From the NCBI GenBank assembly GCA_963772955.1, contig CAVYZF010000003.1, forward strand, positions 364,799 to 428,798: a DNA stretch of 64,000 bases, written 5' to 3'. Source of the DNA: an uncultured Acidobacteriota bacterium (GTDB lineage: Bacteria; Acidobacteriota; Vicinamibacteria; Vicinamibacterales; UBA2999). This document shows, in pieces, positions 2,540 through 53,633 of this stretch. The position numbers and the translations under genes are program-made. Numbering within the stretch: position 1 is the stretch's first letter; each line of letters starts with the position of its first letter. The notes beneath the pieces were generated by a model. That model was not told the origin of the DNA, ran no database searches, and saw only the letters and a list, made by a program, of their open reading frames with translations.

Positions 2540-4477
2540 ATGAGACGCCCTCTCGCGCGTTTGCCCGCCTGTGTGCTCGCGGCTGCGAGTCTGTATGTCG
2601 CATCCGGCCTCAGCCGGACCGTCTCCGCCGACCAGCAGTGCGTTGACCATTCCAAGGATCCGGCCGGCTGTCAGCCGAGCACCTTCGATACGCCGATGGC
2701 GCAGATGCCATCAGTGCGCGTCAACCGTCAGGGCCAGATCGATCCGCACTCATCCGAGGCCGACGCGAAGGCGGGCGCCTTCGAGGTCGAGAAGCGGCTC
2801 TTCCTCTTCCGCAATCTCGAGCACATTCACTGGGTGCCGCTGATTCCGTCCGAACGCGATCCGGCAAGCGGCGGTTGGCGCGGCGGCGACCTCGACGGGG
2901 CCGGCGATGGACGCGGGCTCGGTGTCGCCGGCAATTGCATCTTCGTCGGACATTCGAACGGTGCCGGCGTGAAGCACGCGGTCAACATCCTGAAGATTCA
3001 GCCCGACCCCGCGAAACAGCAGCCGGTTGTCGTGGGTGAGATTCCTGCGATGGTCGAAGGCAACGAAGGCTTCGACGATCGCGAACTGCGGTCGCTCGTC
3101 TACAAGACGTCGCGCGGAGAAGACCGCTACATCCTCGTGCGCAACGCCGGCACCAACACGCTCGGCCGGATGGAGACATACCGCATCGACATGAACACGT
3201 GCCTGCCGACCGCGAAGAGCGAGGTCGTGGACTTCTACTCGCAGTCGCACGAGTTCTTCCTCTGGCACGATCCGGCGAACACGAACCGCGTGCTCGTGTA
3301 CATGACGAACTGGACCGGCGGCGTGCCCGATCCAACCAGTCCAGGCCTGAAGGTGCCTGACCTCCTCGTGATGGCGGTCACCGACGAGGACAGCGGCGAG
3401 ATGCTGCCGAAGCCGAAGTTCCTCGCGGGCTTCACCCTGCAGGAAGTGGGCGGCCCTCCCGTCGACGAGCGCCCGGACGCAACCGGTCTCTTCTCCGATG
3501 GACGCTTCCTCGACTTCAGCGACTCGAAGACCGGACTCGGCCAGGCGGGCAACTTTCAGAACCGCGAGCAGAACCGCTTGCACTCGGTGTCGGTCACTGA
3601 CGACGGCGAGCGGGTGTACGTGGCGGGCACGACGGCCGGGTTTTATGTGCTCGACTCAGAGAAGATCGCGCACTCACGCGACGCGATGCTGGCGACTGCC
3701 GGAGCCGGCTGCAATCAGCGCTCGACCATCGTCTCGGCCAACGGCGTGATGGACGCAGCGAAGATCGCGCAGATTGCCGACGACTGCCTGCACATGGTGG
3801 TCAACAACGATCCGGGCCTGAAGGCATTCCTCGCATCGAATGCCTCGCCGGAAGCCAAGGCCGCGCGCTACCTCGTGCTCATGACCCGATCGCGCTTCGA
3901 CGTGTATCCACCGGTGAACGCGTCTCCCACAGGGACGCACAGCGCGGTGTTCGTGCCGGGCAGGCCGGCTCGCGTGCGCGGAAACACGAAGGGGCGTCCG
4001 GCGTACGTCTGGCTGAGCGACGAGAACGGCGGCTGTCCGCTCAACTACGCGCGCATGGTCTCTGTCGAATCAGAGATGGTGCCGATCATGGTGGGCGCCT
4101 TCGCGATTCCCGACAATCAGATCGAGGAGTGCCTCACCCAGGCGACGACAGAGCCGAACGGACAGCCTCGCCGCCGCATCCCGCAGCAGAATCACAATCC
4201 GACGATCTTCAAGAACCTTGTCTTCACGACGTGGTACGCGCACGGTCTGCGCGTCATCGACATCTCGAATCCCTACGGGCCGCGCGAAGTGGGCCACGCG
4301 CTGACGGTGCCGCAGGGTGTCGCGCGCACCTACCCCGTCTTCAAGGACGGGCTGATCTACTGGGTGGACAACGACACCGGTCTCCATGTCGCGCGCTACA
4401 CGGGTCCGCGCGCCGACGAACTGCCTGGCCCTGGCACGGGCACGTATGAGGGCAATGCGACGAGCCCGCATCGCTAA
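2540..4477 (+). CDS. Secreted LVIVD-repeat beta-propeller protein (function unknown)
   Basis: 645-aa ORF with a signal-like N-terminus (MRRPLARLPACVLAAASLYVASG). The C-terminal WYAHGLRVIDISNPYGPREVG matches the LVIVD repeat motif. A TATACT hexamer lies 7 nt upstream of the ATG. Confidence 0.7.
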   Translation: MRRPLARLPACVLAAASLYVASGLSRTVSADQQCVDHSKDPAGCQPSTFDTPMAQMPSVRVNRQGQIDPHSSEADAKAGAFEVEKRLFLFRNLEHIHWVPLIPSERDPASGGWRGGDLDGAGDGRGLGVAGNCIFVGHSNGAGVKHAVNILKIQPDPAKQQPVVVGEIPAMVEGNEGFDDRELRSLVYKTSRGEDRYILVRNAGTNTLGRMETYRIDMNTCLPTAKSEVVDFYSQSHEFFLWHDPANTNRVLVYMTNWTGGVPDPTSPGLKVPDLLVMAVTDEDSGEMLPKPKFLAGFTLQEVGGPPVDERPDATGLFSDGRFLDFSDSKTGLGQAGNFQNREQNRLHSVSVTDDGERVYVAGTTAGFYVLDSEKIAHSRDAMLATAGAGCNQRSTIVSANGVMDAAKIAQIADDCLHMVVNNDPGLKAFLASNASPEAKAARYLVLMTRSRFDVYPPVNASPTGTHSAVFVPGRPARVRGNTKGRPAYVWLSDENGGCPLNYARMVSVESEMVPIMVGAFAIPDNQIEECLTQATTEPNGQPRRRIPQQNHNPTIFKNLVFTTWYAHGLRVIDISNPYGPREVGHALTVPQGVARTYPVFKDGLIYWVDNDTGLHVARYTGPRADELPGPGTGTYEGNATSPHR

Positions 4478-5486
4478 CCGCGTATTCGCCACGATCGCCA
4501 CGCTGACGCTGTGCGTGCTGGTCACGCTTTTCGTCCAGGCGCAGCAATCACCGGGATCCGGGATCCGGGGCCCGGGATCCGAATCAATCGATGCTGAAAC
4601 GGCGTTCGTGTGCCCGATGCATCCGGACTACACGCTCGACATTGCCGGCACGTGCCCGCGATGCGGCATGGCGCTCGTGCGCGGCGCACCGTTCGACGTG
4701 CGCGACTACGGGCTCGAACTCCTCACGACACCCGCCGTCGTGCAGGCGGGGAAGCCCGCACGGTGGCAGTTCCGCATCTCTCATCCCGGCACGGGCGAGC
4801 GCATCCTGAAGTTCGAGACGGTGCACGAGCGGCAGTACCACCTGTTCGTCATCAGCCAGGACATGACTCACTTTCAGCACATCCATCCGGAGCTGCAGCC
4901 GGATGGCGCGTGGGTCATCGACGTCACGCTGCCGAAAGCCGGCTACTACAAGGTCCTCTCTGATTTCCTTCCCGCAGGTGGCGCATCACAGTTCATCGCG
5001 CGGCCGCTGGTCACGGCCGGGTACGCAGGTGATTTCGCCGGTGACTCTGCGCGGCTGACTCCGGACGCCAGCAACACGCAGACGATCGACGACCTCACTG
5101 CCAGAGTCAGCTACGACCCGGCTCCTTTCGTCGCTGGCCTCTACGGCCATCTCCAATTCGATCTGACAGACGCTGCGACAGGAAGCCCGGTCACGGATCT
5201 ACAGACCTACCTGGGCGCCTTCGGGCACACGCTCATCATGAGCGAAGACCTGAACGAGTACGTCCACTCCCACTCGCTCGACATCGTTCCCGGTGGTAAC
5301 GACGACGAAGACATGCCGCAGTTCCTGATACCGCCCGGTGCCGACCTCGAGAAGCTGCGCGGTGGTCCCAGGGTGATCTTCGACGGCTTGATGCCAAAGC
5401 CCGGCCGCTACCGTGCGTGGACGCAGTTCAGGCGTCGCGACAGGGTCCACACGTTCGTGACGACGTTCGAGGTGCGGGAGAGATGA
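4446..5486 (+). CDS. Heavy-metal-binding-domain (HMBD) protein with two Ig-like His-motif domains
   Basis: I chose the start at ATG 4446 (MRAMRRARIANRVFATIATLTLCVLV, signal/TM). CPMHPDYTLDIAGTCPRCGMALV is the HMBD motif seen at the N-terminus of CusB-type proteins. There are two repeats with His clusters (HLFVISQDMTHFQHIHP; HTLIMSEDLNEYVHSH). It overlaps the upstream CDS by 32 nt. Confidence 0.7.
   Translation: MRAMRRARIANRVFATIATLTLCVLVTLFVQAQQSPGSGIRGPGSESIDAETAFVCPMHPDYTLDIAGTCPRCGMALVRGAPFDVRDYGLELLTTPAVVQAGKPARWQFRISHPGTGERILKFETVHERQYHLFVISQDMTHFQHIHPELQPDGAWVIDVTLPKAGYYKVLSDFLPAGGASQFIARPLVTAGYAGDFAGDSARLTPDASNTQTIDDLTARVSYDPAPFVAGLYGHLQFDLTDAATGSPVTDLQTYLGAFGHTLIMSEDLNEYVHSHSLDIVPGGNDDEDMPQFLIPPGADLEKLRGGPRVIFDGLMPKPGRYRAWTQFRRRDRVHTFVTTFEVRER
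4551..4582. repeat. Tandem 7-nt repeat (~5 units) inside CDS
   Basis: Reads ccgggat ccgggat ccggggc ccgggat ccga and encodes PGSGIRGPGSE in the linker after the signal/TM segment. Confidence 0.7.
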
Positions 5487-6604
5487 AGCCGGCTCTCGGC
5501 TCTGGGCTCTTGGCTCTGGGCATTGCCCTCGTCATGGCGTGGCCGCAGTCAGTCCAGTCCCACGGATCGCTGACGACGACGGTGCTGTTCGATCGGGAGA
5601 TCGTGCGGATCCTGAATCAGCGCTGCGTGATGTGTCACATGGACAAGGGATTGTCGTTTCCGCTCGAGACCTACGAGCAGACATGGCTGCAAGGCCGGGC
5701 CATGCGAGCGTCGGTGCTGCGTCGCCACATGCCTCCATGGTCCGCTGTTGCCGGATACGGCGAATTCGTCAACGACAACCGCCTGACGCTGCGCGAATCG
5801 CAATTCCTCGTGTCGTGGGTCGAAGGCCTCGGACCACGAAACGGCGGCAAGGTGTTCCTCAACGTCGTCGATCCGAAAGCGTCGGCCGCGCGGGAGATCC
5901 GCGCCACGCCGCACACCGATCACTGGCAGCTCGGTGAACCCGATCTCCTGCGGCCGTTGCCACCGAGTGCGATCGACGCAAAGGCGAGCGATGCGACGAA
6001 GAGGCTCGTGGTCGATCTCGGCCTCACGGCCACGCGGCAGGTGCGGGGACTCGAGTTCATGCCTGGCGACCGTCGCGTCGTACGTGCGGCGACGTTCAGC
6101 CTCGAAAGCACCGGACAATGGCTCGGCAGCTGGACGCCGTGGCACAGCTTCGTGGAACTTCCGCAGGGCGTTGCCTATCGCCTTCCCGCGCGGTCCCGGA
6201 TCGTCGTTGACATTCACTATCGCGGAACGAACGTGGAGACAACCGACCGCAGCACACTCGGCGTGTTCTTTGTATCGAATCCCGAACCCCGAATCCCGAA
6301 TCCCGATATCAAGGCCGCCACCGACCTCGTTGTCGACACCCGGACCAGGCTCGCCCGAGACACGCGCGTGTGGGCGGTTCAGCCCGAGATCGTGGCCGGT
6401 CTCACATCGCTCGAAGTGTCCGCGAGACGGCCGGATGGCGGCACGGATGTCCTGTTGGCGCTGACTGATCCATCAGCAGACTGGCCAACGCCGTATCTGC
6501 TCAAGACTCCCCGGTTGCTCAGTCGAGGAACAGAGGTTTTTGTCGTCGCACGGTCTGCCACAGCGCAGTCGCGGCCACTACGCGTGCGACTGAGCCGGTA
6601 CTAG
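5483..6604 (+). CDS. Periplasmic mono-heme cytochrome c-like protein
   Basis: ATG 5483 overlaps the upstream stop (ATGA). Signal peptide MKPALGSGLLALGIALVMAWPQSVQS. There is one CXXCH motif (ILNQRCVMCHMDKGLSF) in a planctomycete-type cytochrome context. The C-terminal half is unassigned. Confidence 0.6.
   Translation: MKPALGSGLLALGIALVMAWPQSVQSHGSLTTTVLFDREIVRILNQRCVMCHMDKGLSFPLETYEQTWLQGRAMRASVLRRHMPPWSAVAGYGEFVNDNRLTLRESQFLVSWVEGLGPRNGGKVFLNVVDPKASAAREIRATPHTDHWQLGEPDLLRPLPPSAIDAKASDATKRLVVDLGLTATRQVRGLEFMPGDRRVVRAATFSLESTGQWLGSWTPWHSFVELPQGVAYRLPARSRIVVDIHYRGTNVETTDRSTLGVFFVSNPEPRIPNPDIKAATDLVVDTRTRLARDTRVWAVQPEIVAGLTSLEVSARRPDGGTDVLLALTDPSADWPTPYLLKTPRLLSRGTEVFVVARSATAQSRPLRVRLSRY
5491..5520. 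repeat. Tandem 7-nt repeat x4 (GGCTCTn) in signal-peptide coding region
   Basis: Reads ggctctc ggctctg ggctctt ggctctg ggc and encodes ALGSGLLALG. Confidence 0.7.
6276..6306. repeat. Tandem 7-nt repeat x4+ (CGAATCC) inside CDS
   Basis: Reads cgaatcc cgaaccc cgaatcc cgaatcc cga and encodes SNPEPRIPNPD. Confidence 0.75.
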
Positions 6605-41674: not shown

Positions 41675-43317
41675 TCATCGGGCGCGCAGCTTCGAGAGTT
41701 CCGCGCTCAGCTCGTCGAGCAGCTTCTGCATTTCTCGACTGTCCAGCTGCGACGCCGCGCTCTTCGCGGAGAACTCCGACAGCGTCTTCTGCATGACTTC
41801 GATCTGCGCCTCGGCAGCGAGCGACTCGATTCGCATCTTCGCCATCTCGGCCTGCGCCTGACGAATCGCTTCCTGCTTGAGGCCCACGTCCGCAGTGGCG
41901 CGGCGCAACTCCTCGAAGCTTTCGGCGATCTGTTGCGTCGCACTCTTGATCAACTCGTGGATCGAGTCCGGATCCAGACCGAGCGGCTCCGCGGGCGGAG
42001 CCGGTGGCGCGGGAGGTGCCGGAAGTGCCGGCAAGGACCTGCGCGTTCGGCGGTAGCGGAGGCGCGGGCGCTGCAGGCGCTGAGCCCGGCGGCGCGGGCA
42101 CAGCGAACGGCGGAAGGCACCGGTGGCACGGGCGGCTGCGGTGGTTGAGGCCAGGGCTGGGCCTCGGGCTGCGGCGTGGGTTGAGCCTGCGGTTGCGACG
42201 TGGGCCGGCCCTGGGGCCGAGGCGCAGGCTGGGGCCGAGGCGCAGTGTCCTCCACCGCCTTGCGGTCGCGAACGGCAGACGGCAACACCGGAACCTGCGG
42301 CGGATTCGACTGCCCACTGTCCGATTGCAGTGACGTCACCAGCCCACTCGCATCGGCGACCGTCAGAGCTGGAGTCACCACGATCGCCGTGACGACGGCC
42401 AGCGCCGCTGCGATCGTCCACATGGTCGATCGACGTTCTTTCATCGGCGATTCCCCGAGCAGACGGCGGATCCGATCGACCAGCCGGCCTCCAGATGCAT
42501 TGAGCGAGAGCATGGGTTGGAGTCCTCTCAATTCTTCGAGTTGAGCGAGTGCTGCCGCATACGCCACTCGATTGCCGCCGGCCTCGACCACCATGTCGTC
42601 GCAGCAGTGCTCGCGTTCGATTCGAATCTGCCGCGAGCACCACCAGACTGCCGGGTGGTAGAAGAGAAGCGTTTCGACGAGCGACTGCAGCACGTTGACG
42701 AGGTAATCATGCCGGCGCACGTGAGCAAGCTCGTGCGCGAGCACGGCATCGAGGTACGCCGGCATCAGACCGGTGAGCACGCTCGCCGGAAGCAGGATGA
42801 CCGGTCGCAGGCAACCGACGACGGTCGGCACGCGAACAAGAGTCGATTCGAATACGCGCACGGGCCTGTCGATGCCGAAGCGGTGTGCGAGCGACTGCAC
42901 TCGAGCGATCACCGTCGCATCAACAGCTCGAGTCGCCCACTTCAGCCGCTCGACGCCGGCCCACGCGACGATGAGCCGCACGGAGAGCAGCAGAACACCG
43001 ACCAGCCAGACGACGACGGCAGCAGGCAGGAGACGATCGAGTGGCACCGGCGGGCCGACGTTGATTGAGGTTGCCGCGGCCGAGACGATGGCCAGTGAAT
43101 CCGATCCGCGATCGGCGAGCACTGCGACGAGGGGAACGATCAGCATCAGTGCGAGGCTGAAACACGCCACGGCGTAACGAACGGTGGGTCGCGCGCCGGC
43201 AAGCGCACGAAGCGCAAGCGCGGAGGCGATACCGATCACCGTGCCCTGCCAGACGAAATGAATCAGCGCCCAGCCAATCGATTGAACCAGCGGCATGTCG
43301 AGCAGCGGATCAGTCAC
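41675..43317 (-). pseudogene. BlaR1/MecR1-like M56 metallopeptidase sensor with Pro-rich linker and coiled-coil C-terminus (two apparent frameshifts in the Pro-rich region)
   Basis: HELAHVRRHD zinc motif and 4 TM segments. After ...PQPPQPPVPPVP (about 42115) the sensible sequence moves to PPFAVPAPPGSAPAAPAPPLPPNAQV. After about 42040 it moves again to LPALPAPPAPPAPPAEPLGLDPDSIHELIK...LDELSAELSKLRAR* (stop 41675). Confidence 0.7.
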
Positions 43318-43702
43318 GGTTCTTCTCCTCGTGCTCCTTCAACAGGCGTCGAATCTCACGGAGTTCGTCTGCGGAGGCCGGTTTCACCGCAAGCGCCTGC
43401 ATGACGAGCTGACTGGGCGAACCGCCAAATGCGCGATCGACCAGGTCTCGAATCAGGTGCCGCTGCGTTTCCTCCTGCGCGACCGCAGCCCGGTACAGAT
43501 GGACACGGCCATCCTCGTCACGGACGGCAACGCCCTTCTCCGTCATCAGCTGCAGCAGCTTCAGGGTGGTCGTGTAGGCGAAGTCGCGGTCGGCGGAGAG
43601 CACGTCATGGACCTGGCGGACGGTGCTCGGGCCGCGTTCCCAGAGGACGCGCAGGATGGATAGCTCGGCGTCGGTGGGTCGTGGAGTCGGGCGACGTGCC
43701 AT
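43310..43702 (-). CDS. blaI: BlaI/MecI/CopY-family transcriptional repressor
   Basis: MARRPTPRPTDAELSILRVLWERGPSTVRQVHDVLSADRDFAYTTTLKLLQLMTEKGVAVRDEDGRVHLY is the canonical winged-helix sequence of the family. It overlaps the M56 gene start by 8 nt. Confidence 0.9.
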   Translation of the reverse strand: MARRPTPRPTDAELSILRVLWERGPSTVRQVHDVLSADRDFAYTTTLKLLQLMTEKGVAVRDEDGRVHLYRAAVAQEETQRHLIRDLVDRAFGGSPSQLVMQALAVKPASADELREIRRLLKEHEEKNRD

Positions 43703-43715
43703 GTCCCGCAGTCTC

Positions 43716-43754
43716 CTACGATTAATTTCGTAGTGTCAACGAAATTCTTCGTAG
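43716..43754. promoter_or_regulatory. Two tandem 18-bp operator-like palindromes upstream of blaI
   Basis: CTACGAT-taat-TTCGTAG (43716-43733) and CAACGAA-attc-TTCGTAG (43737-43754). The centres are 21 bp apart, 14-52 nt upstream of the blaI ATG (43702). Confidence 0.55.
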
Positions 43755-43775
43755 CGCTGTTCTCGCGCCTGAAAC

Positions 43776-43795
43776 GGCGGGCCTGAAGGCCCGCC
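43776..43795 (-). terminator. GC-rich hairpin downstream of the 43816..44860 membrane gene
   Basis: GGCGGGCC-tgaa-GGCCCGCC is a perfect 8-bp stem, followed by a weak U tract (GTTTCAGG on the minus strand). It has the same stem family as the hairpins at 51239 and 51779. Confidence 0.4.
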
Positions 43796-43815
43796 GCTAC
43801 TGGATACTGCCTCCC

Positions 43816-47027: not shown

Positions 47028-48362
47028 CTACCTTCCGGATCCCACCAGACCAAAGTTCTTCTTCAGCCCCTGCCAGTGCGTGTAGTAGTCACGCTCGAGC
47101 AGATCCGTTTCCAGCGCGAAGCGGGTCGGACGAATCGGCAGCTGCGTTTCGAACAGAAATACCAGCGTGTCGTCCAGGAACTGTGGCTTCAGTTCCGCCG
47201 TCCGCCCGCGCTCGTACGCGTCCGCGTCCGGACCGTGACCTGACATGCAGTTGTGCAGGCTCGTGCTGCCAGGACCGAAGTCGTCTCCCTTGCCGATGTA
47301 CTTCCCGGCAATCAGCCCGAGAAACTCGCTCGCGACATTTCGGTGGAAAGGCGGTGGACGGAACGTGTGTTCAGCGACGGTCCATCTTGGCGGGAAACAT
47401 CCAAACTCCATGTTCGAGGTGCCTGGCACAGACGTCGGCGACGCGAGCACACAGTAGATCGACGGATCCGGATGATCGAAGGTGACCGTGTTGATGCACT
47501 GAAATTTGTAGAGGTCGTACCTGAACGGCAGGTAGTTGCCACGCCAGGCGACGATGTCGAGTGGAGAGTGATCGATTTCAGCTTCCCACATCCCGCCACC
47601 GAACTTGGCGACGAGGCGGAAGTCACCTTCGCGATCTTCGAAGCCGGCGACCGGAGCCTGAAAGTCGCGCGCGTTGGCGAGGCCGAACGTCCCGATGGGG
47701 CCAAGGTCGGGCAACCGCAGATTCTGCCCGTAGTTCTCGCAGATGAAACCGCGCACCGGCCCATCCGGAAGCTCGACCCGAAACTTGACGCCGCGAGGGA
47801 TCAACACCACCTGCCCAGGCGGCGCATCGAGGATCCCGAACTCCGTATGCAACACGAGCGCGCCCGACTGCGGCACGATCAGAAGTTCTCCATCGGCGTT
47901 ATAGAAAAACCGATCCCGCATGGAAAGATTAGCCGCGTACAGGTGAATTGCCGCACCTGACTGAGCCGCGGGGTCGCCGTTGCCGCCGATCGTGACGATG
48001 CCATCCACGAAATCGGTCGGATCTTTGGGGATCGGCATCGCTTTCCAGCGGAGCTGGTTCGGGGTCGGCGGAACTTCGTTGAACGGACCACTACGGATCA
48101 ATCGCAGGCCGCGCGGCTTGAACGGCTTGTGCATCGCCGACGGCCTGATCCGATAGGTCCAGGTCGAGCGACTCACGCCACGCGGCGCCGTGAACGCAGT
48201 GCCGTTCAACTCCTCGATATACAGGCCCAAGGGCGGCTTCTGAGGCGTGTTCTGATCGCGCGGTAGAGCGCCGGCGATCGCCTCAGACGCGAACTCATTG
48301 CCGAAGCCCGACAGATATTCCCGTTCTCCAGCCGAGGTAAAACCAGGTGCCTTGGATGACAT
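47028..48362 (-). CDS. hmgA: Homogentisate 1,2-dioxygenase
   Basis: 444 aa. [61 protein letters not shown]... is typical of HmgA across its full length. Confidence 0.93.
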
Positions 48363-49176: not shown

Positions 49177-51144
49177 ATGCGCAAAGTGGCTCTGTCATTC
49201 CCATTCATCCTGACCGCCCTGGCCGTCTGGACCGTGACCGGCGGCGCCGCTGACGCCGATCGCGATTGGCCTGCGTACGCCGGCGACAAGGGCAGCACGA
49301 AGTACTCGCCCCTCGATCAGATCAACAAGGACACGATCAAGAACCTGAGGGTCGCGTGGACACGCTCCGGCCTGCCGGAGGAACTGCGTTCGACATTCCC
49401 CGATGCGCAGGCAGCGGCGAACTACCAGCACACACCGCTCGTCGTGGGCGGCGTGATGTACATGAGTTCCGCCGTCGGCGCAATCGTCGCTCTCGATCCA
49501 ACAACTGGGAAGACGCTGTGGTACGACACTCTTCCCCTTCGTCCGGATGGACAAGGCCCCGCGCGCGGCGGCGCCACACGGAGCCTCGCCTACTGGACCG
49601 ATGGACGCGATGCGCGCATCGTGACCAACGTCGGCGCGAATCTGGTTGCCATCAACGCGAAGACTGGAAAGCGGTACCCCGACTTCGGCGAGAACGGGCA
49701 GGTCGATCTCACGAAAGGCTTCGAGCGTCCGATCACCGGGTGGCGCTGGAGCAGCGGGCCGATCGTCGTCAAGGACGTCGTAGTCGTCGCCGGCGTCCCC
49801 TCGCCGGCAACGGACATCCTCAACGAACGCGCACGCGCGCCGAAGGAGATGCCGCCAGACGACGTCCGTGGCTACGACGTGCGGACGGGCAAGCTGTTGT
49901 GGACCTTTCACGTCGTGCCACGTAAAGGCGAACCGGGAAACGACACGTGGCTCAACGATTCGTGGACGTATTCAGGGAACAGCGGGGCGTGGTCGCTGCT
50001 GAGCGCCGACGAAGACCTCGGCTACGTGTATCTGCCGCTCGAAGAAGCGACTGGTGACTACTACGGTGGCACGCGGCCTGGCAACAACCTCTATGCCGAG
50101 TCGATCGTCTGCCTCGACGCGCGCACCGGCAAACGCGTGTGGCATTTCCAGACCATTCATCACGGCCTGTGGGACTACGACCTTCCCGCTGCACCCGTCC
50201 TCGGCGACATCACGGTCAACGGACGACGGATCAAAGCCGTCGCGCAGGTGTCGAAGCAGGCATTCGTGTATGTCTTCGATCGCGTGACCGGTCAGCCGGT
50301 GTGGCCGATCGAAGAGAAGCCGGTGCCGAAAGGAGATGTGCCCGGTGAGTGGTACTCAGCGACGCAGCCGATTCCGTCGAAGCCACCCGCGTTCGATCAG
50401 CAGGGAGTCTCTGACAACGATCTGATCGACTTCACGCCGGAGTTGAAGGCTGAAGCGAAGAAGATCGTCAGCGAGTACAAGACCGGCCCGATCTACACAC
50501 CGCCCGTCCTCCTTGGCAGCGCCGATGGTCCCAAGGGACTCCTGCTCGTGCCGGGAACGAATGGCGGTGCTGACTGGGGTGGCGCCGCGTTCGATCCTGA
50601 GTCGGGCATGTTGTACGTGCCGTCTGCCCACATGCCGACGGTCATCGCACTGGGCAAGTCGCAGCATCCGGAGTCGACACTGCCGTACGTGAAGCAGACG
50701 GCGTCGTGGCCATTCGGGCCGCAGGGCCTGCCCGATCCGTTCAAGCCGCCGTACTCGCGTCTCGTCGCGATCGACTTGAACAAGGGCGACATCGCGTGGT
50801 CGGTCGCGAATGGCGATGGACTGCGCAATCATCCGGCGTTCAAGGGGCTGAATCTTCCGCCGCTCGGCACGCCCGGCCGTCTCGCCGCGCTCGTCACCAA
50901 GAGCTTCGTGTTCATGGGTGAAGGGAGCGACAGTGGTGTGGGACTGCCACCTGGTGGTCCGTGGGGCGGCAAGAAATTCCGCGCGTTCGACAAGAAGACG
51001 GGCGCGATCGTCTGGGAGATGGAATTGCCCGCTGGCGTCAGCAATGCGCCGATGACCTACATGGCCAAAGGCAAGCAGTACATCGTCGTCGGGATCTCAG
51101 GACGGCAGTATCCAGGCGAGCTCGTCGCGCTGGCATTGCCATGA
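49177..51144 (+). CDS. PQQ-dependent dehydrogenase (quinoprotein beta-propeller)
   Basis: Signal MRKVALSFPFILTALAVWTVTGGAADA. DWPAYAGDKGSTKYSPLDQINKDTIKNLRVAW and the repeated W-motifs are typical of quinoprotein glucose/alcohol dehydrogenases. A TACACT hexamer lies 7 nt upstream of the ATG. Confidence 0.85.
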   Translation: MRKVALSFPFILTALAVWTVTGGAADADRDWPAYAGDKGSTKYSPLDQINKDTIKNLRVAWTRSGLPEELRSTFPDAQAAANYQHTPLVVGGVMYMSSAVGAIVALDPTTGKTLWYDTLPLRPDGQGPARGGATRSLAYWTDGRDARIVTNVGANLVAINAKTGKRYPDFGENGQVDLTKGFERPITGWRWSSGPIVVKDVVVVAGVPSPATDILNERARAPKEMPPDDVRGYDVRTGKLLWTFHVVPRKGEPGNDTWLNDSWTYSGNSGAWSLLSADEDLGYVYLPLEEATGDYYGGTRPGNNLYAESIVCLDARTGKRVWHFQTIHHGLWDYDLPAAPVLGDITVNGRRIKAVAQVSKQAFVYVFDRVTGQPVWPIEEKPVPKGDVPGEWYSATQPIPSKPPAFDQQGVSDNDLIDFTPELKAEAKKIVSEYKTGPIYTPPVLLGSADGPKGLLLVPGTNGGADWGGAAFDPESGMLYVPSAHMPTVIALGKSQHPESTLPYVKQTASWPFGPQGLPDPFKPPYSRLVAIDLNKGDIAWSVANGDGLRNHPAFKGLNLPPLGTPGRLAALVTKSFVFMGEGSDSGVGLPPGGPWGGKKFRAFDKKTGAIVWEMELPAGVSNAPMTYMAKGKQYIVVGISGRQYPGELVALALP

Positions 51145-51238
51145 CGCTCGGACACGCGCACCTTCTTCGCGCGATCGCATCGGGACTCGCGAGTCTACGG
51201 CAAGCGCTTCGAGGACGCGCGTCGACGGGGATCGGTGG

Positions 51239-51798
51239 CGGCGGGTCTTCAGACCCGCCGTCGATCCAATCACGCGATCGTTACACACTCGTCCGGCGTC
51301 CGCTCCGCACGGCGGGAAATTGCTCTCCGCTCAATCCCTCTCGCTCCCGCCGCGAGTAGTACCCGTTTCACACGCCTGCCATCGCGGCATGCACCGCCGG
51401 ATTCGATTCCATCAGATGGATCGCGCGGCACGAACTCGCGGCGTTGAATCGCTGCGATCAATTTCCGGCTACGCGGTGTAACGCTGTGCTCCGAACGGAC
51501 GCCGGACCGAGCATGTAACGATCGCGCGCGCTCACGTCGAAGGTCCGTGGGTCGGCCCACTGAATATCTCGCCAGTTAAACTTCAGTTCACGATCAGCGC
51601 GATCCGTGGCGGTGGTATTAGCACTGCCGGTGCATGCCGCGATAGCAGACGTCGGCATCGGAAACTACTCGCGGTGAGCGCGTCAGGGTAAGAGCGAAGA
51701 GCGATTTCCCGCCGCGCGGAGCGACCGCCCGGAGAGGGCGAGCCGCGAGCCGTAGAAGGCGACATGTGCGTGTACGAAGGCGGGTCAGAAGACCCGCC
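51239..51798. repeat. 560-bp foldback: ~160-170-bp imperfect inverted repeats flanking a 231-bp core
   Basis: The left arm 51239-51396 and right arm 51628-51798 are reverse complements at roughly 70% identity in the inner ~100 nt. Examples: ccgctccgcacggcgggaaattgctc vs tcgctccgcgcggcgggaaatcgctc; ccgcgagtagt; atcgcggcatgcaccg. Each outer end is a hairpin GGCGGGTC-n4-GACCCGCC. Confidence 0.8.
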
Positions 51799-51831
51799 TC
51801 TACAAACTACCTATGTTCGACTCGCCGTGCC

Positions 51832-52812
51832 CTACGGCGTTGGCGGCGGGGCGTCGCCTTCACGACACGCGGCGTTGTTCGTGTTCGGCACGGTCAGCCC
51901 CGTGCCGCCGCAACAGTACACCGTGCATTTTACTGGCGGCTTGTAGGTTGACCTCAACTTCTTCCCGTACTCTGGATACGTCGTTGCCGCGCCACCACGC
52001 ACCGCTTCGAGCGGCAGATTGAATGTCTCTGCGAACTCGTTGAGATACGGGTTCTCTCCCGGCAGGTAGTGCGGCACGACGCCAGGCGCGCGCGGGATTT
52101 CGACCTGCGGTTCACACGGCTCTGGCAACACGCGCGTCTGAGGATCGAGCTCGAACGTCGCATTCCTGATGAACGGCTCTTCGTAGTAGATCGGGTCGTT
52201 CAGGATCATCGTGATCGTGAGCATGTCGCCGTGACGCGCGTAGAACTCCGTGATAGTCGCCTGATCGCTGTGCGGCACGCCGTTTCGCCACACGAGCCCG
52301 GCCTTCAGGTGCGTCGTCTGCGCGACGATCGTCCCGCCCTGCCAGACACCGGTCGAAAACCCGCCCGGCGTATGAGGCGAATTCTTCGAGGGATGCGGAC
52401 GGCCGTCCATCCAGACTGTGTGAGGCGCGCGGTCGACGGTACCAGTCATGTGGAGCGCAACGATCGCGCCAGAGATCGGATCGACTTCGGGCTCGATGCG
52501 CACGTTCTGCGGACCCATGACGATGTACTGGGAGGTGTAGAGGATGCATTGCCGCTCGGGCATGTTCTGCATCGACACCTGATAGAGGTCGGCGTACGCC
52601 CGCGCTTCGTCGTTGATCGGCAAACCGCTGTAGTCACCGATGTGCGGTCCCGGCGCGCGCTCGACCCAGTCCTCGTGCAGGCGGTTGGCCCACGAGCCTG
52701 CGAGGTCGGTGACCTGCCCGCGCGTCGCCGCTGCCGCGGCCTCGACTTGCCCCTGCGCAAACGCCGGCACGCTCGCGAGCATCGCCACGGCAGTCAGCAC
52801 ACTGATCTTCAT
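51832..52812 (-). CDS. Secreted hypothetical protein (paralog family)
   Basis: Start MKISVLTAVAMLASVPAFAQ (ATG 52812), not the track start 53319. LAGSWANRLHEDWVERAPGPHIGDYSGLPINDEA... parallels the 52830..53633 product. Confidence 0.7.
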   Translation of the reverse strand: MKISVLTAVAMLASVPAFAQGQVEAAAAATRGQVTDLAGSWANRLHEDWVERAPGPHIGDYSGLPINDEARAYADLYQVSMQNMPERQCILYTSQYIVMGPQNVRIEPEVDPISGAIVALHMTGTVDRAPHTVWMDGRPHPSKNSPHTPGGFSTGVWQGGTIVAQTTHLKAGLVWRNGVPHSDQATITEFYARHGDMLTITMILNDPIYYEEPFIRNATFELDPQTRVLPEPCEPQVEIPRAPGVVPHYLPGENPYLNEFAETFNLPLEAVRGGAATTYPEYGKKLRSTYKPPVKCTVYCCGGTGLTVPNTNNAACREGDAPPPTP

Positions 52813-52829
52813 TCGAGTTCCTCGCACTT

Positions 52830-53633
52830 CTAGCTCGCCTCGCACGCGGACGGATCCCACTTCGATCCGTTCGCTTCCTTCTTGAAGTTGAGCGACGTGA
52901 TCCACGTCCGGCTCAGATACATCGGATCCTCGACGACCGTCGTGATCACGATCCACTGCTCTCCTGTTGGCTGACGCAGCAGATCCCAATACTCGGTGAG
53001 CGTCGCCTTCTCGCTGAAGGGAACGCCGTTCTTGCGAAGGTAGCCCGCCATCAGCCCTGTGGTCACCGTCTTCAGGTTGCCAGCGCGCTGATCCGGCGGA
53101 GGCAGCGGCTGCCCACGACGCCCCTGACGTGCTTCCCACTGCGCCGTCGTGTTGCCCTGGCGTGTCGGTCCGCCCGCCGGCGGCTTCCAGTCGCCGAAGT
53201 GCAGGAGGCGTGTCTGCGTGCCCGCATCTGTTTCGACCTTCAGCGTCGTGTCGTCCTGCCATGAGATGCGCAACCGAGTGGGCAGACGCATCAGGCCGGG
53301 CGCGCCGTACGCCTTGCACTGATCACCGGCGGCAACGTCCTTCGCCGAGTCCCATGCGTCCGCAACCTTCTTCGCCTCCGCGTTGATCGGAATGCTTGTG
53401 TAGTCACCCTTGGGAGGCGTGACCATTCGCCAGCGCCAGTCCTCCGTGACGACAGAGACCCAGTTGCCCGCGAGATCGATTGGCGCCGCGGCACGGGGTG
53501 TCGGTGGCGGTTCGGGAGGCGTTTGCCCACGCCCACCCTGGCCTTGTCCGCGCGCCGGCGTCTGCGCGACGGCATTCGACGCGACCAGCGCAACGAGCAG
53601 CGCTGTTGCGAATACGAAGTTGCCCGTTCTCAC
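52830..53633 (-). CDS. Secreted hypothetical protein (paralog family)
   Basis: Signal MRTGNFVFATALLVALVASNAVAQ. LAGNWVSVVTEDWRWRMVTPPKGDYTSIPINAEA.... Confidence 0.7.
   Translation of the reverse strand: MRTGNFVFATALLVALVASNAVAQTPARGQGQGGRGQTPPEPPPTPRAAAPIDLAGNWVSVVTEDWRWRMVTPPKGDYTSIPINAEAKKVADAWDSAKDVAAGDQCKAYGAPGLMRLPTRLRISWQDDTTLKVETDAGTQTRLLHFGDWKPPAGGPTRQGNTTAQWEARQGRRGQPLPPPDQRAGNLKTVTTGLMAGYLRKNGVPFSEKATLTEYWDLLRQPTGEQWIVITTVVEDPMYLSRTWITSLNFKKEANGSKWDPSACEAS

Follow-up and report, generated by a model that had tools for sequence, protein, structure and literature searches.

The closest described counterparts of the locus reported here are the eleven RNA motifs DUF3800-I to -XI (Weinberg et al. 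2017, PMC5737381; Rfam entries include RF02969 and RF02968). Each is a conserved, structured non-coding element lying beside a DUF3800 gene, on either side of it and in either orientation, often with a terminal hairpin, which for several motifs has been described at the 3′ end (PMC5737381). The motifs are structurally unrelated to one another and their function is unknown. DUF3800 proteins are RNase H2-like and occur also in type VII retrons and with a Cas12a2 branch. The element described below shares these traits with the known motifs, but it belongs to Acidobacteriota, it is present as two diverged, inverted copies that bracket the gene, and it also survives as gene-less pairs and, at other loci, as solo copies.

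The window, as we call the whole 64,000-nt stretch of DNA analysed here, carries between two convergent genes a 560-bp imperfect foldback. In our judgement this is probably the decayed remnant of a three-part DUF3800 module that sits between a gene of 334 aa and the PQQ dehydrogenase gene in a clade of Vicinamibacterales, and whose repeated unit is a DUF3800-associated structured element. The full module would consist of an optional GTAG hairpin, unit B, a DUF3800 (RNase H2-like) gene on the same strand as B, unit A facing them both, and a second optional hairpin, with A and B being old paralogues of one non-coding element of about 265 nt. In the window, deletions would have taken the greater part of the gene and one third of B, at its 3′ end, leaving A and a gene relic of about 45 nt; since the two units are inward-facing, what is left reads as a foldback. 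The features concerned are as follows.

51141 to 51844: segment present in the window and represented by 14 nt in four related contigs, L030-L033 (blastn against L030, and junction sequences).
51235 to 51259, plus strand: left REP-like hairpin, a GTGG(C) head followed by GGCGGGTC-TTCA-GACCCGCC (pattern scan).
51265 to 51531, plus strand: unit A, full length (about 265 nt), with a predicted closing rod of 51273-51330 paired with about 51451-51526 around an inner domain (covariance model R1, 279 bits, model positions 1-267; nhmmer, 241 bits; fold and covariation).
51555 to 51597, minus strand: putative relic of the DUF3800 gene (38 of 47 positions match L009 948-995).
51592 to 51759, minus strand: unit B, truncated, with model positions of about 1-166 kept and about 100 nt lost at the 3′ end (nhmmer 51751-51592, HMM positions 7-166, 124.5 bits; R1, 106.5 bits).
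51779 to 51803, minus strand: right REP-like hairpin, GTAGA followed by GGCGGGTC-TTCT-GACCCGCC (pattern scan), missing at the same place in L003 and L029.
43776 to 43800, minus strand: solo hairpin, GTAGC followed by GGCGGGCC-TTCA-GGCCCGCC, about 20 nt after a minus-strand gene, where R1 sees no unit nearby.

The flanking genes are that of the PQQ dehydrogenase (49177-51144, plus strand; Pfam PF01011, E = 2e-181) and, convergent to it, an uncharacterised minus-strand gene that ends at 51832. The true length of the latter's product is about 334 aa; the 495-aa ORF listed at 51832-53319 is overextended, since homologues are about 330 aa long and have no Pfam domain. With 1330 matches at E ≤ 1e-20, the 334-aa protein represents a widespread uncharacterised family in Vicinamibacterales-like soil bacteria.

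A repeat finder returned a gapless inverted match of 51288-51396 with 51628-51736 (109 nt, 78% complementary, 231 nt between the arms), and a gapped match reaches both hairpins at about 71% over about 171 nt. Local alignment of the left arm with the reverse complement of the right arm scored 101, against 19.6 ± 2.7 (maximum 32) in 500 dinucleotide shuffles, which corresponds to z of about 30. This formal check bears out the inverted repeat reported in a first-pass annotation of the sequence, and the three shared sequence blocks named there are found in both arms. The inner similarity that it had put at roughly 70% measures 78%. Its arms were drawn too short, the homology between copies running about 35 nt further inward, and its separate ‘231-bp core’ dissolves, about 130 nt of it belonging to the left unit as its 3′ half, a stretch that folds back to pair with the 5′ end of that unit (51273-51305 with 51493-51526).

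Further copies were sought with a degenerate pattern built from two conserved blocks of the unit and with an HMM made from the first copies. The pattern matched seven loci in contigs representing one genome per species, all seven with copies, and 21 loci in metagenome contigs, 18 of them with a copy by nhmmer; at the three other metagenome matches (L010, L011 and L028) nhmmer found none, and a scan of viral contigs for the unit gave no match. Altogether nhmmer finds about 40 copies, many of them full length at about 255-265 nt, and the named records that carry them are all Acidobacteriota or Vicinamibacterales MAGs. The suspected repeat family is thus present in Vicinamibacterales MAGs and in soil metagenomes alike, but its unit measures about 265 nt with a closing rod of its own, not the 170 nt originally estimated. 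Identity is 80-94% among type A copies and 77-96% among type B copies, whereas A and B share 73-79%, in keeping with the earlier view of two old, diverged copies in inverted orientation rather than a recent hairpin. The left copy of the window is of type A (294 bits with the type-A HMM versus 156 with type B) and the right copy of type B (143 bits versus 91 with type A); unlike the window's B, the orthologous B units of L003 and L029 are complete. A weak full-length match to the covariance model of the unit (23.5 bits; 47413-47681, minus strand) falls inside the homogentisate dioxygenase gene of the window and, given the rough calibration of the model, is probably GC-rich noise.

Related contigs were found through homologues of the 334-aa protein, and orthology was judged by homology of the flanks. 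The relatives share the order ABC transporter, metallo-beta-lactamase, 198-aa gene, 334-aa gene, PQQ dehydrogenase, HgmA and second lactamase, and flank comparison places most of the metagenome unit matches at this same orthologous locus in other strains. Comparison of related genomes reveals empty sites: in L030-L033, whose flanking proteins are 90-93% identical to those of the window, the 334-aa gene and the PQQ dehydrogenase gene overlap by 9 nt, and the 704 nt of the window segment correspond to the 14 nt listed above. Elsewhere the site holds B, a gene and a facing A (L012/L016/L027, L022 and L009/L013), a gene with A on one side and an A-like copy on the other (L015), A and a partial B around a gene fragment (L024), a gene-less pair with a spacer of 119-122 nt (L003 and L029), B only (L026) or two truncated, abutting units (L018), and pseudogenes are also among the states; the window, with A complete and B truncated, adds its own. 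That L030-L033 are empty might stem from secondary loss; in L019 the PQQ dehydrogenase is only 87% identical, and a unit is still present. Set against the empty site, the window junctions show no target duplication, the event being old and the junctions remodelled. Five independent insertions of a mobile cassette (L009, L012, L015, L022 and L024) had also been considered, and were ruled out by the flanks, which show one orthologous locus.

Between the units at the orthologous loci L009, L012/L027, L015, L022 and L024 lies a DUF3800 gene. The frameshift-merged product of L022 matches Pfam PF12686 over its full length (E = 4.5e-5; 24.6 bits, cut-off 21), and the intact 280-aa product of L027 (P0121) belongs to a family of 60 proteins in which D9-E10, H55, D128, E158 and Q204-x-x-D207 are invariant. 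An AlphaFold2 model of the L027 product (pLDDT 89.8) has its best structural matches in RNase H2/HII (3puf and 1eke; probability 1.0, TM 0.42-0.52). DE and QxxD motifs are hallmarks of DUF3800 (PMC7736814). On the combined basis of the invariant D-E and QxxD residues, the above-cut-off match to PF12686 and the RNase H2/HII-like model, the cassette gene is assigned to DUF3800, with a predicted RNase H2-like fold. PADLOC returned no match for the DUF3800 proteins.

In each of the four cassettes that pair an A with a B (L009, L012, L022 and L024) the gene is co-oriented with B, and the relic in the window, downstream of B on the same strand, has the placement seen in intact cassettes. This relic is short, its match extending over only 47 aligned positions of a segment of L009 that encodes ..TYGERKFLTGGIFSDG.., and two 2-nt gaps break its frame. 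The module of the window is probably inert, aside from any action that unit A may have in trans.

The L012-type and L022-type cassettes were compared with each other. Their proteins are barely alignable (E = 0.013, N-terminus only), while the units flanking them are about 89-90% identical, and the DNA homology of the cassettes ends at the unit ends. Since very different DUF3800 alleles have been swapped between the same units, these appear to delimit an exchangeable cassette. We further suggest that the units are a structured nucleic-acid partner of the DUF3800 nuclease and would represent a twelfth kind of DUF3800-associated RNA motif, the link between unit and DUF3800 being drawn from one hypervariable locus and from the analogous L038 locus described below. 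Closer relatives of the gene (L037, L047 and L048) have no flanking units, and neither the HMM nor the covariance model detects units around more distant DUF3800 homologues. At L048 (3501-4370) a 42%-identical DUF3800-like gene adjoins a P22-type portal gene, so that the family occurs also in phage or prophage DNA.

Like the known DUF3800 motifs, the unit has a secondary structure backed by covariation, and it is predicted to fold into an imperfect rod of 45-50 bp that closes an inner domain. RNAalifold applied to 19 full-length copies gave 46 pairs, with 96.2% of cells paired. Compensatory changes occur at 13 pairs, against 3.5 ± 1.1 in column shuffles (none of 500 reaches 13) and 2-6 when the structure is slid by 1-3 columns, although this covariation comes largely from the split between A and B and from one divergent copy (L004b), and so from few independent events. 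The outermost closing stem, 13-25 bp long and outside the RNAalifold alignment, is wholly different among the four subtypes (A, B, L004a and L004b) and is nonetheless complementary to itself in every copy: the termini of the unit differ wholesale while its interior is conserved. When closing stems are swapped, mean self-pairing amounts to -30 kcal/mol versus -21 for cross-pairing, and the stem of L004a reaches -40 with itself and -26 or weaker with every other copy. A covariance-model check against Rfam, which had been suggested for the unit, yielded no match in Rfam 15 for the window and six related loci, even at E ≤ 5-10, and none of the eleven DUF3800 motif models in Rfam matches the unit.

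Two other identities for the arms were rejected. A shared open frame in both arms is ruled out by single-base indels that break every frame among the copies, by arm mismatches without third-position bias (10/6/8 over the codon positions) and by the lack of any Pfam match to the arms. An integron attC site was set aside by inspection: RYYYAAC/GTTRRRY cores are lacking, attC sites reach at most half the length of the unit, and its copies come as inverted pairs.

Which strand of the unit would act is a matter on which the tests conflict. In helices common to both strands, the counts of G-U and A-C are 22 and 5 on the inward strand, which reads hairpin then unit and is favoured by this measure. 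In favour of the outward strand, on the other hand, are the folding energy (better in 18 of 19 copies), the z-scores (-5.1 versus -3.8 inward), a stabler rod in 16 of 19 copies and a gain of extra conserved G-U pairs, although the inward strand is C-rich and the energy tests are biased accordingly. The outward preference bears on one candidate of the first-pass annotation, a small-RNA gene with its own terminator, taken here as two divergently transcribed genes that each end in an outward terminator hairpin and are unrelated to any protein gene. In such an arrangement the hairpin would come at the 3′ end, as in several DUF3800 motifs (PMC5737381), and the proposal survives only if the outward strand is the one transcribed. 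Against it, the hairpins have no U-tract and are missing from orthologous copies. Nothing beyond chance was seen of a sigma-70-like promoter or U-tailed terminator in the window and three cassettes, with no promoter-like site in the 65-nt interval between the window units; the right copy is truncated at its would-be 5′ end, and the DUF3800 association argues against independence from a protein gene. We therefore regard a pair of independent small-RNA genes as very unlikely, and prefer the remnant of a DUF3800 module.

The hairpins themselves appear to be a separate matter. The motif GGCGGGTC-n4-GACCCGCC occurs exactly at 51240-51259 and 51779-51798, and the third hairpin at 43776-43795 carries a T>C change compensated by A>G, so that three matches stand against 0.2 expected by chance; the identical outer hairpins and the third family member had all been correctly recognised before. 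Their reading as integral ends of the unit fails, as at the orthologous site they are found on both sides in the window, on the A side only in L029 and on neither side in L003, which has other small hairpins in these positions. They are also not classical terminators, because they lack a T-run: their tails read GTCGATCC and TCTACAAA, and no terminator-like site was found in 50500-52500. A GTAG-headed version of the left hairpin lies upstream of the units in L009, L012, L014, L018, L022 and L026, and in L009, L012, L014/L026, L018, L022 and the window the GTAG hairpin stands 10-65 nt outside the units. We infer that the hairpins are separate REP-like or terminator-like elements that land after GTAG and turn over independently of the units. 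In L012 (2695-2745, minus strand), where the stop of the 334-aa gene adjoins the hairpin, the 17-nt TCCCCCGAAATCCGTAG is tandemly repeated, which may be the footprint of a hairpin insertion after GTAG. Downstream of the solo hairpin in the window (43700-43770, minus strand), a palindrome ATTTCGT..ACGAAAT overlaps a TTGACA-like hexamer just upstream of a minus-strand ORF (43310-43702) and, judged by its sequence, looks like an operator and promoter.

Could the foldback as a whole be a giant REPIN, that is, two inverted GTAG-headed REP hairpins together with what they enclose, moved by a transposase of the RAYT (Y1/HUH) type? Both outer hairpins do combine a GTAG head, or GTGG in the left window copy, with a GC-rich palindrome, and they are inverted; the hairpin always follows GTAG; at the end of the 334-aa gene (...CCGTAG|) L009 and L012 have it, but L003, L015 and L029 do not; and there is a solo copy at 43776. 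The likeness to REP elements, including the position after gene ends and the turnover by presence and absence, is nevertheless confined to these 25-nt outer hairpins and does not extend to the 265-nt units. The hairpins are individually dispensable, L003 having both units without any and L029 only one, and they stand about 520 nt apart, far beyond the spacing of a REPIN doublet. In about 300 kb of fetched loci they occur almost only beside units, no RAYT gene was seen, and the conserved, covarying part is the unit rather than the hairpin. A REPIN origin is accordingly highly improbable, and the DUF3800 module remains the reading on which we build.

The architecture of this module recurs with another sequence, for in another Vicinamibacterales MAG (L038) a 51%-identical DUF3800 homologue, with a pseudouridine synthase gene on one side and a cold-shock gene on the other, is bracketed by an inverted repeat unrelated in sequence to unit A/B. 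This repeat is 154 nt long with 95% identity, each of its arms lies within a unit of about 200 nt (3613-3812 and 4965-5174) closed by a 39-44-bp stem, and a GTAGTGTCCGGC... hairpin stands upstream. Upstream of the cold-shock gene, L038 also contains a sub-threshold match to the cspA thermoregulator (5275-5601, minus strand; 34.9 bits, gathering score 78).

Bacterial genomes harbour dispersed, imperfectly palindromic intergenic units of 100-300 nt, such as ERIC/IRU, the Correia repeats of Neisseria and RUP/BOX, which often lie after genes, form long hairpins if transcribed and commonly include truncated copies. The units described here resemble these and MITEs in being dispersed, intergenic and imperfectly palindromic. 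One MAG, MCT-CON-06, has six copies on four contigs, and there are about ten contexts outside the PQQ dehydrogenase locus: at L004/L008 an a/b pair separates a cupin gene from an amidase gene, at L006 two copies stand in tandem between the genes for MacB and LigD, at L007 two incomplete copies surround DUF4097 and MFS genes, and further instances are found at L002, L005, L017, L020, L021, L023 and L025, with no DUF3800 gene near any of these. Units lie just 3′ of a co-oriented gene in 8 of 11 independent cases (orthologous copies merged), each ends in an inverted repeat of 13-25 bp, the site beside the PQQ dehydrogenase gene is polymorphic for presence and absence, and truncated and tandem copies occur (L006, L007 and L018). 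On such grounds the units might be selfish repeats of the MITE or ERIC/Correia kind, moved in trans by an unseen transposase and piling up between convergent genes, with the DUF3800 gene as an unrelated insertion at a hotspot.

We consider this unlikely, though not negligible. The terminal inverted repeats are the least conserved part of the unit, differing between subtypes while remaining complementary within each copy, which is the reverse of what transposase-binding ends would show; this, together with the lack of a visible target duplication at the (remodelled) window junctions, also tells against the first-pass suggestions of a MITE or of decayed IS ends. No autonomous partner was found. 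The window contains no transposase, as had been stated, and the sole one seen with a unit is incidental: at L020 (106-1810) an insertion of 1.4 kb with a DDE_Tnp_1 transposase gene divides the unit in two, about 15 unit positions being duplicated at the two junctions, and this enzyme was rejected as the mobiliser of the unit since its insertion interrupts it. Moreover, the same units form the exact borders of two DUF3800 alleles that look unrelated, and L038 repeats the architecture with another sequence. A DUF3800-associated element, set apart from MITE-type repeats by its conserved interior and its link to the nuclease gene, thus stays our preferred interpretation.

Transposons, too, carry members of the protein family found in the cassette. 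In IS1595-family insertion sequences of about 2.2 kb the second gene is a DUF3800-like homologue, 38-60% identical to the L027-type protein, in the layout DUF3800 facing a convergent DDE_Tnp_IS1595 (L041 3837-6016, also L042-L044; L045 2880-5059, also L046; L040 3802-6109). These elements have terminal repeats of 24-28 nt (GGTAATAATATACTTGAC...; GGTAATAATATACTTG...) and 8-bp target duplications (ACCGTAAC, AAAGTTAA and CTGACAAG), and a leader of 160-210 nt before the DUF3800 gene is partly conserved among the three. A fourth such case was noticed on the contig of P0132. As in the cassette, a gene of this family lies between inverted terminal sequences, but the window and the unit-bearing loci have no IS1595 transposase ORF, no match to the terminal repeats and no duplication.

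TnpB and IscB of IS200/IS605 elements are RNase H-fold nucleases that operate with an adjacent conserved structured RNA, the omega-RNA, and these RNAs were first catalogued as orphan motifs (IS605-orfB and HEARO). By analogy, DUF3800 RNase H2-like proteins might be transposon-borne nucleases with a structured RNA beside the gene, be it one of the eleven orphan motifs or the present units; in Vicinamibacterales the inverted units would then have two roles, supplying the RNA partner and forming the termini of a cassette that is exchangeable or mobile. Such a reading would explain the different alleles between the same units and the persistence of gene-less pairs, and it fits the IS1595 elements with their DUF3800 second gene, clean terminal repeats and 8-bp duplications. 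The two systems would have in common a transposon-carried accessory nuclease with an RNase H fold and a structured motif next to its gene, but for DUF3800 a guide segment, a link between RNA and protein and a nuclease activity would all be putative, and we offer this extension as a speculation with a rather low chance of being right.

For the window, these results mean that the spacer should be annotated as a dead cassette and not as a regulatory hairpin for the PQQ dehydrogenase. For the family they may reach further. The eleven DUF3800-associated RNA motifs have been without a functional hypothesis since 2017, and the locus adds a further, unrelated-looking structured DUF3800 partner in a new phylum. 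It also provides a natural series at one site, comprising empty, intact, allele-swapped, pseudogenised and gene-less states, in which the units bound an exchangeable segment and outlast the gene, and work on the locus links the DUF3800 clade of the cassette to IS1595 transposons. Taken together, the new partner, the series of states and the IS1595 link make testable the idea that DUF3800 and its structured partner form a mobile-element module.
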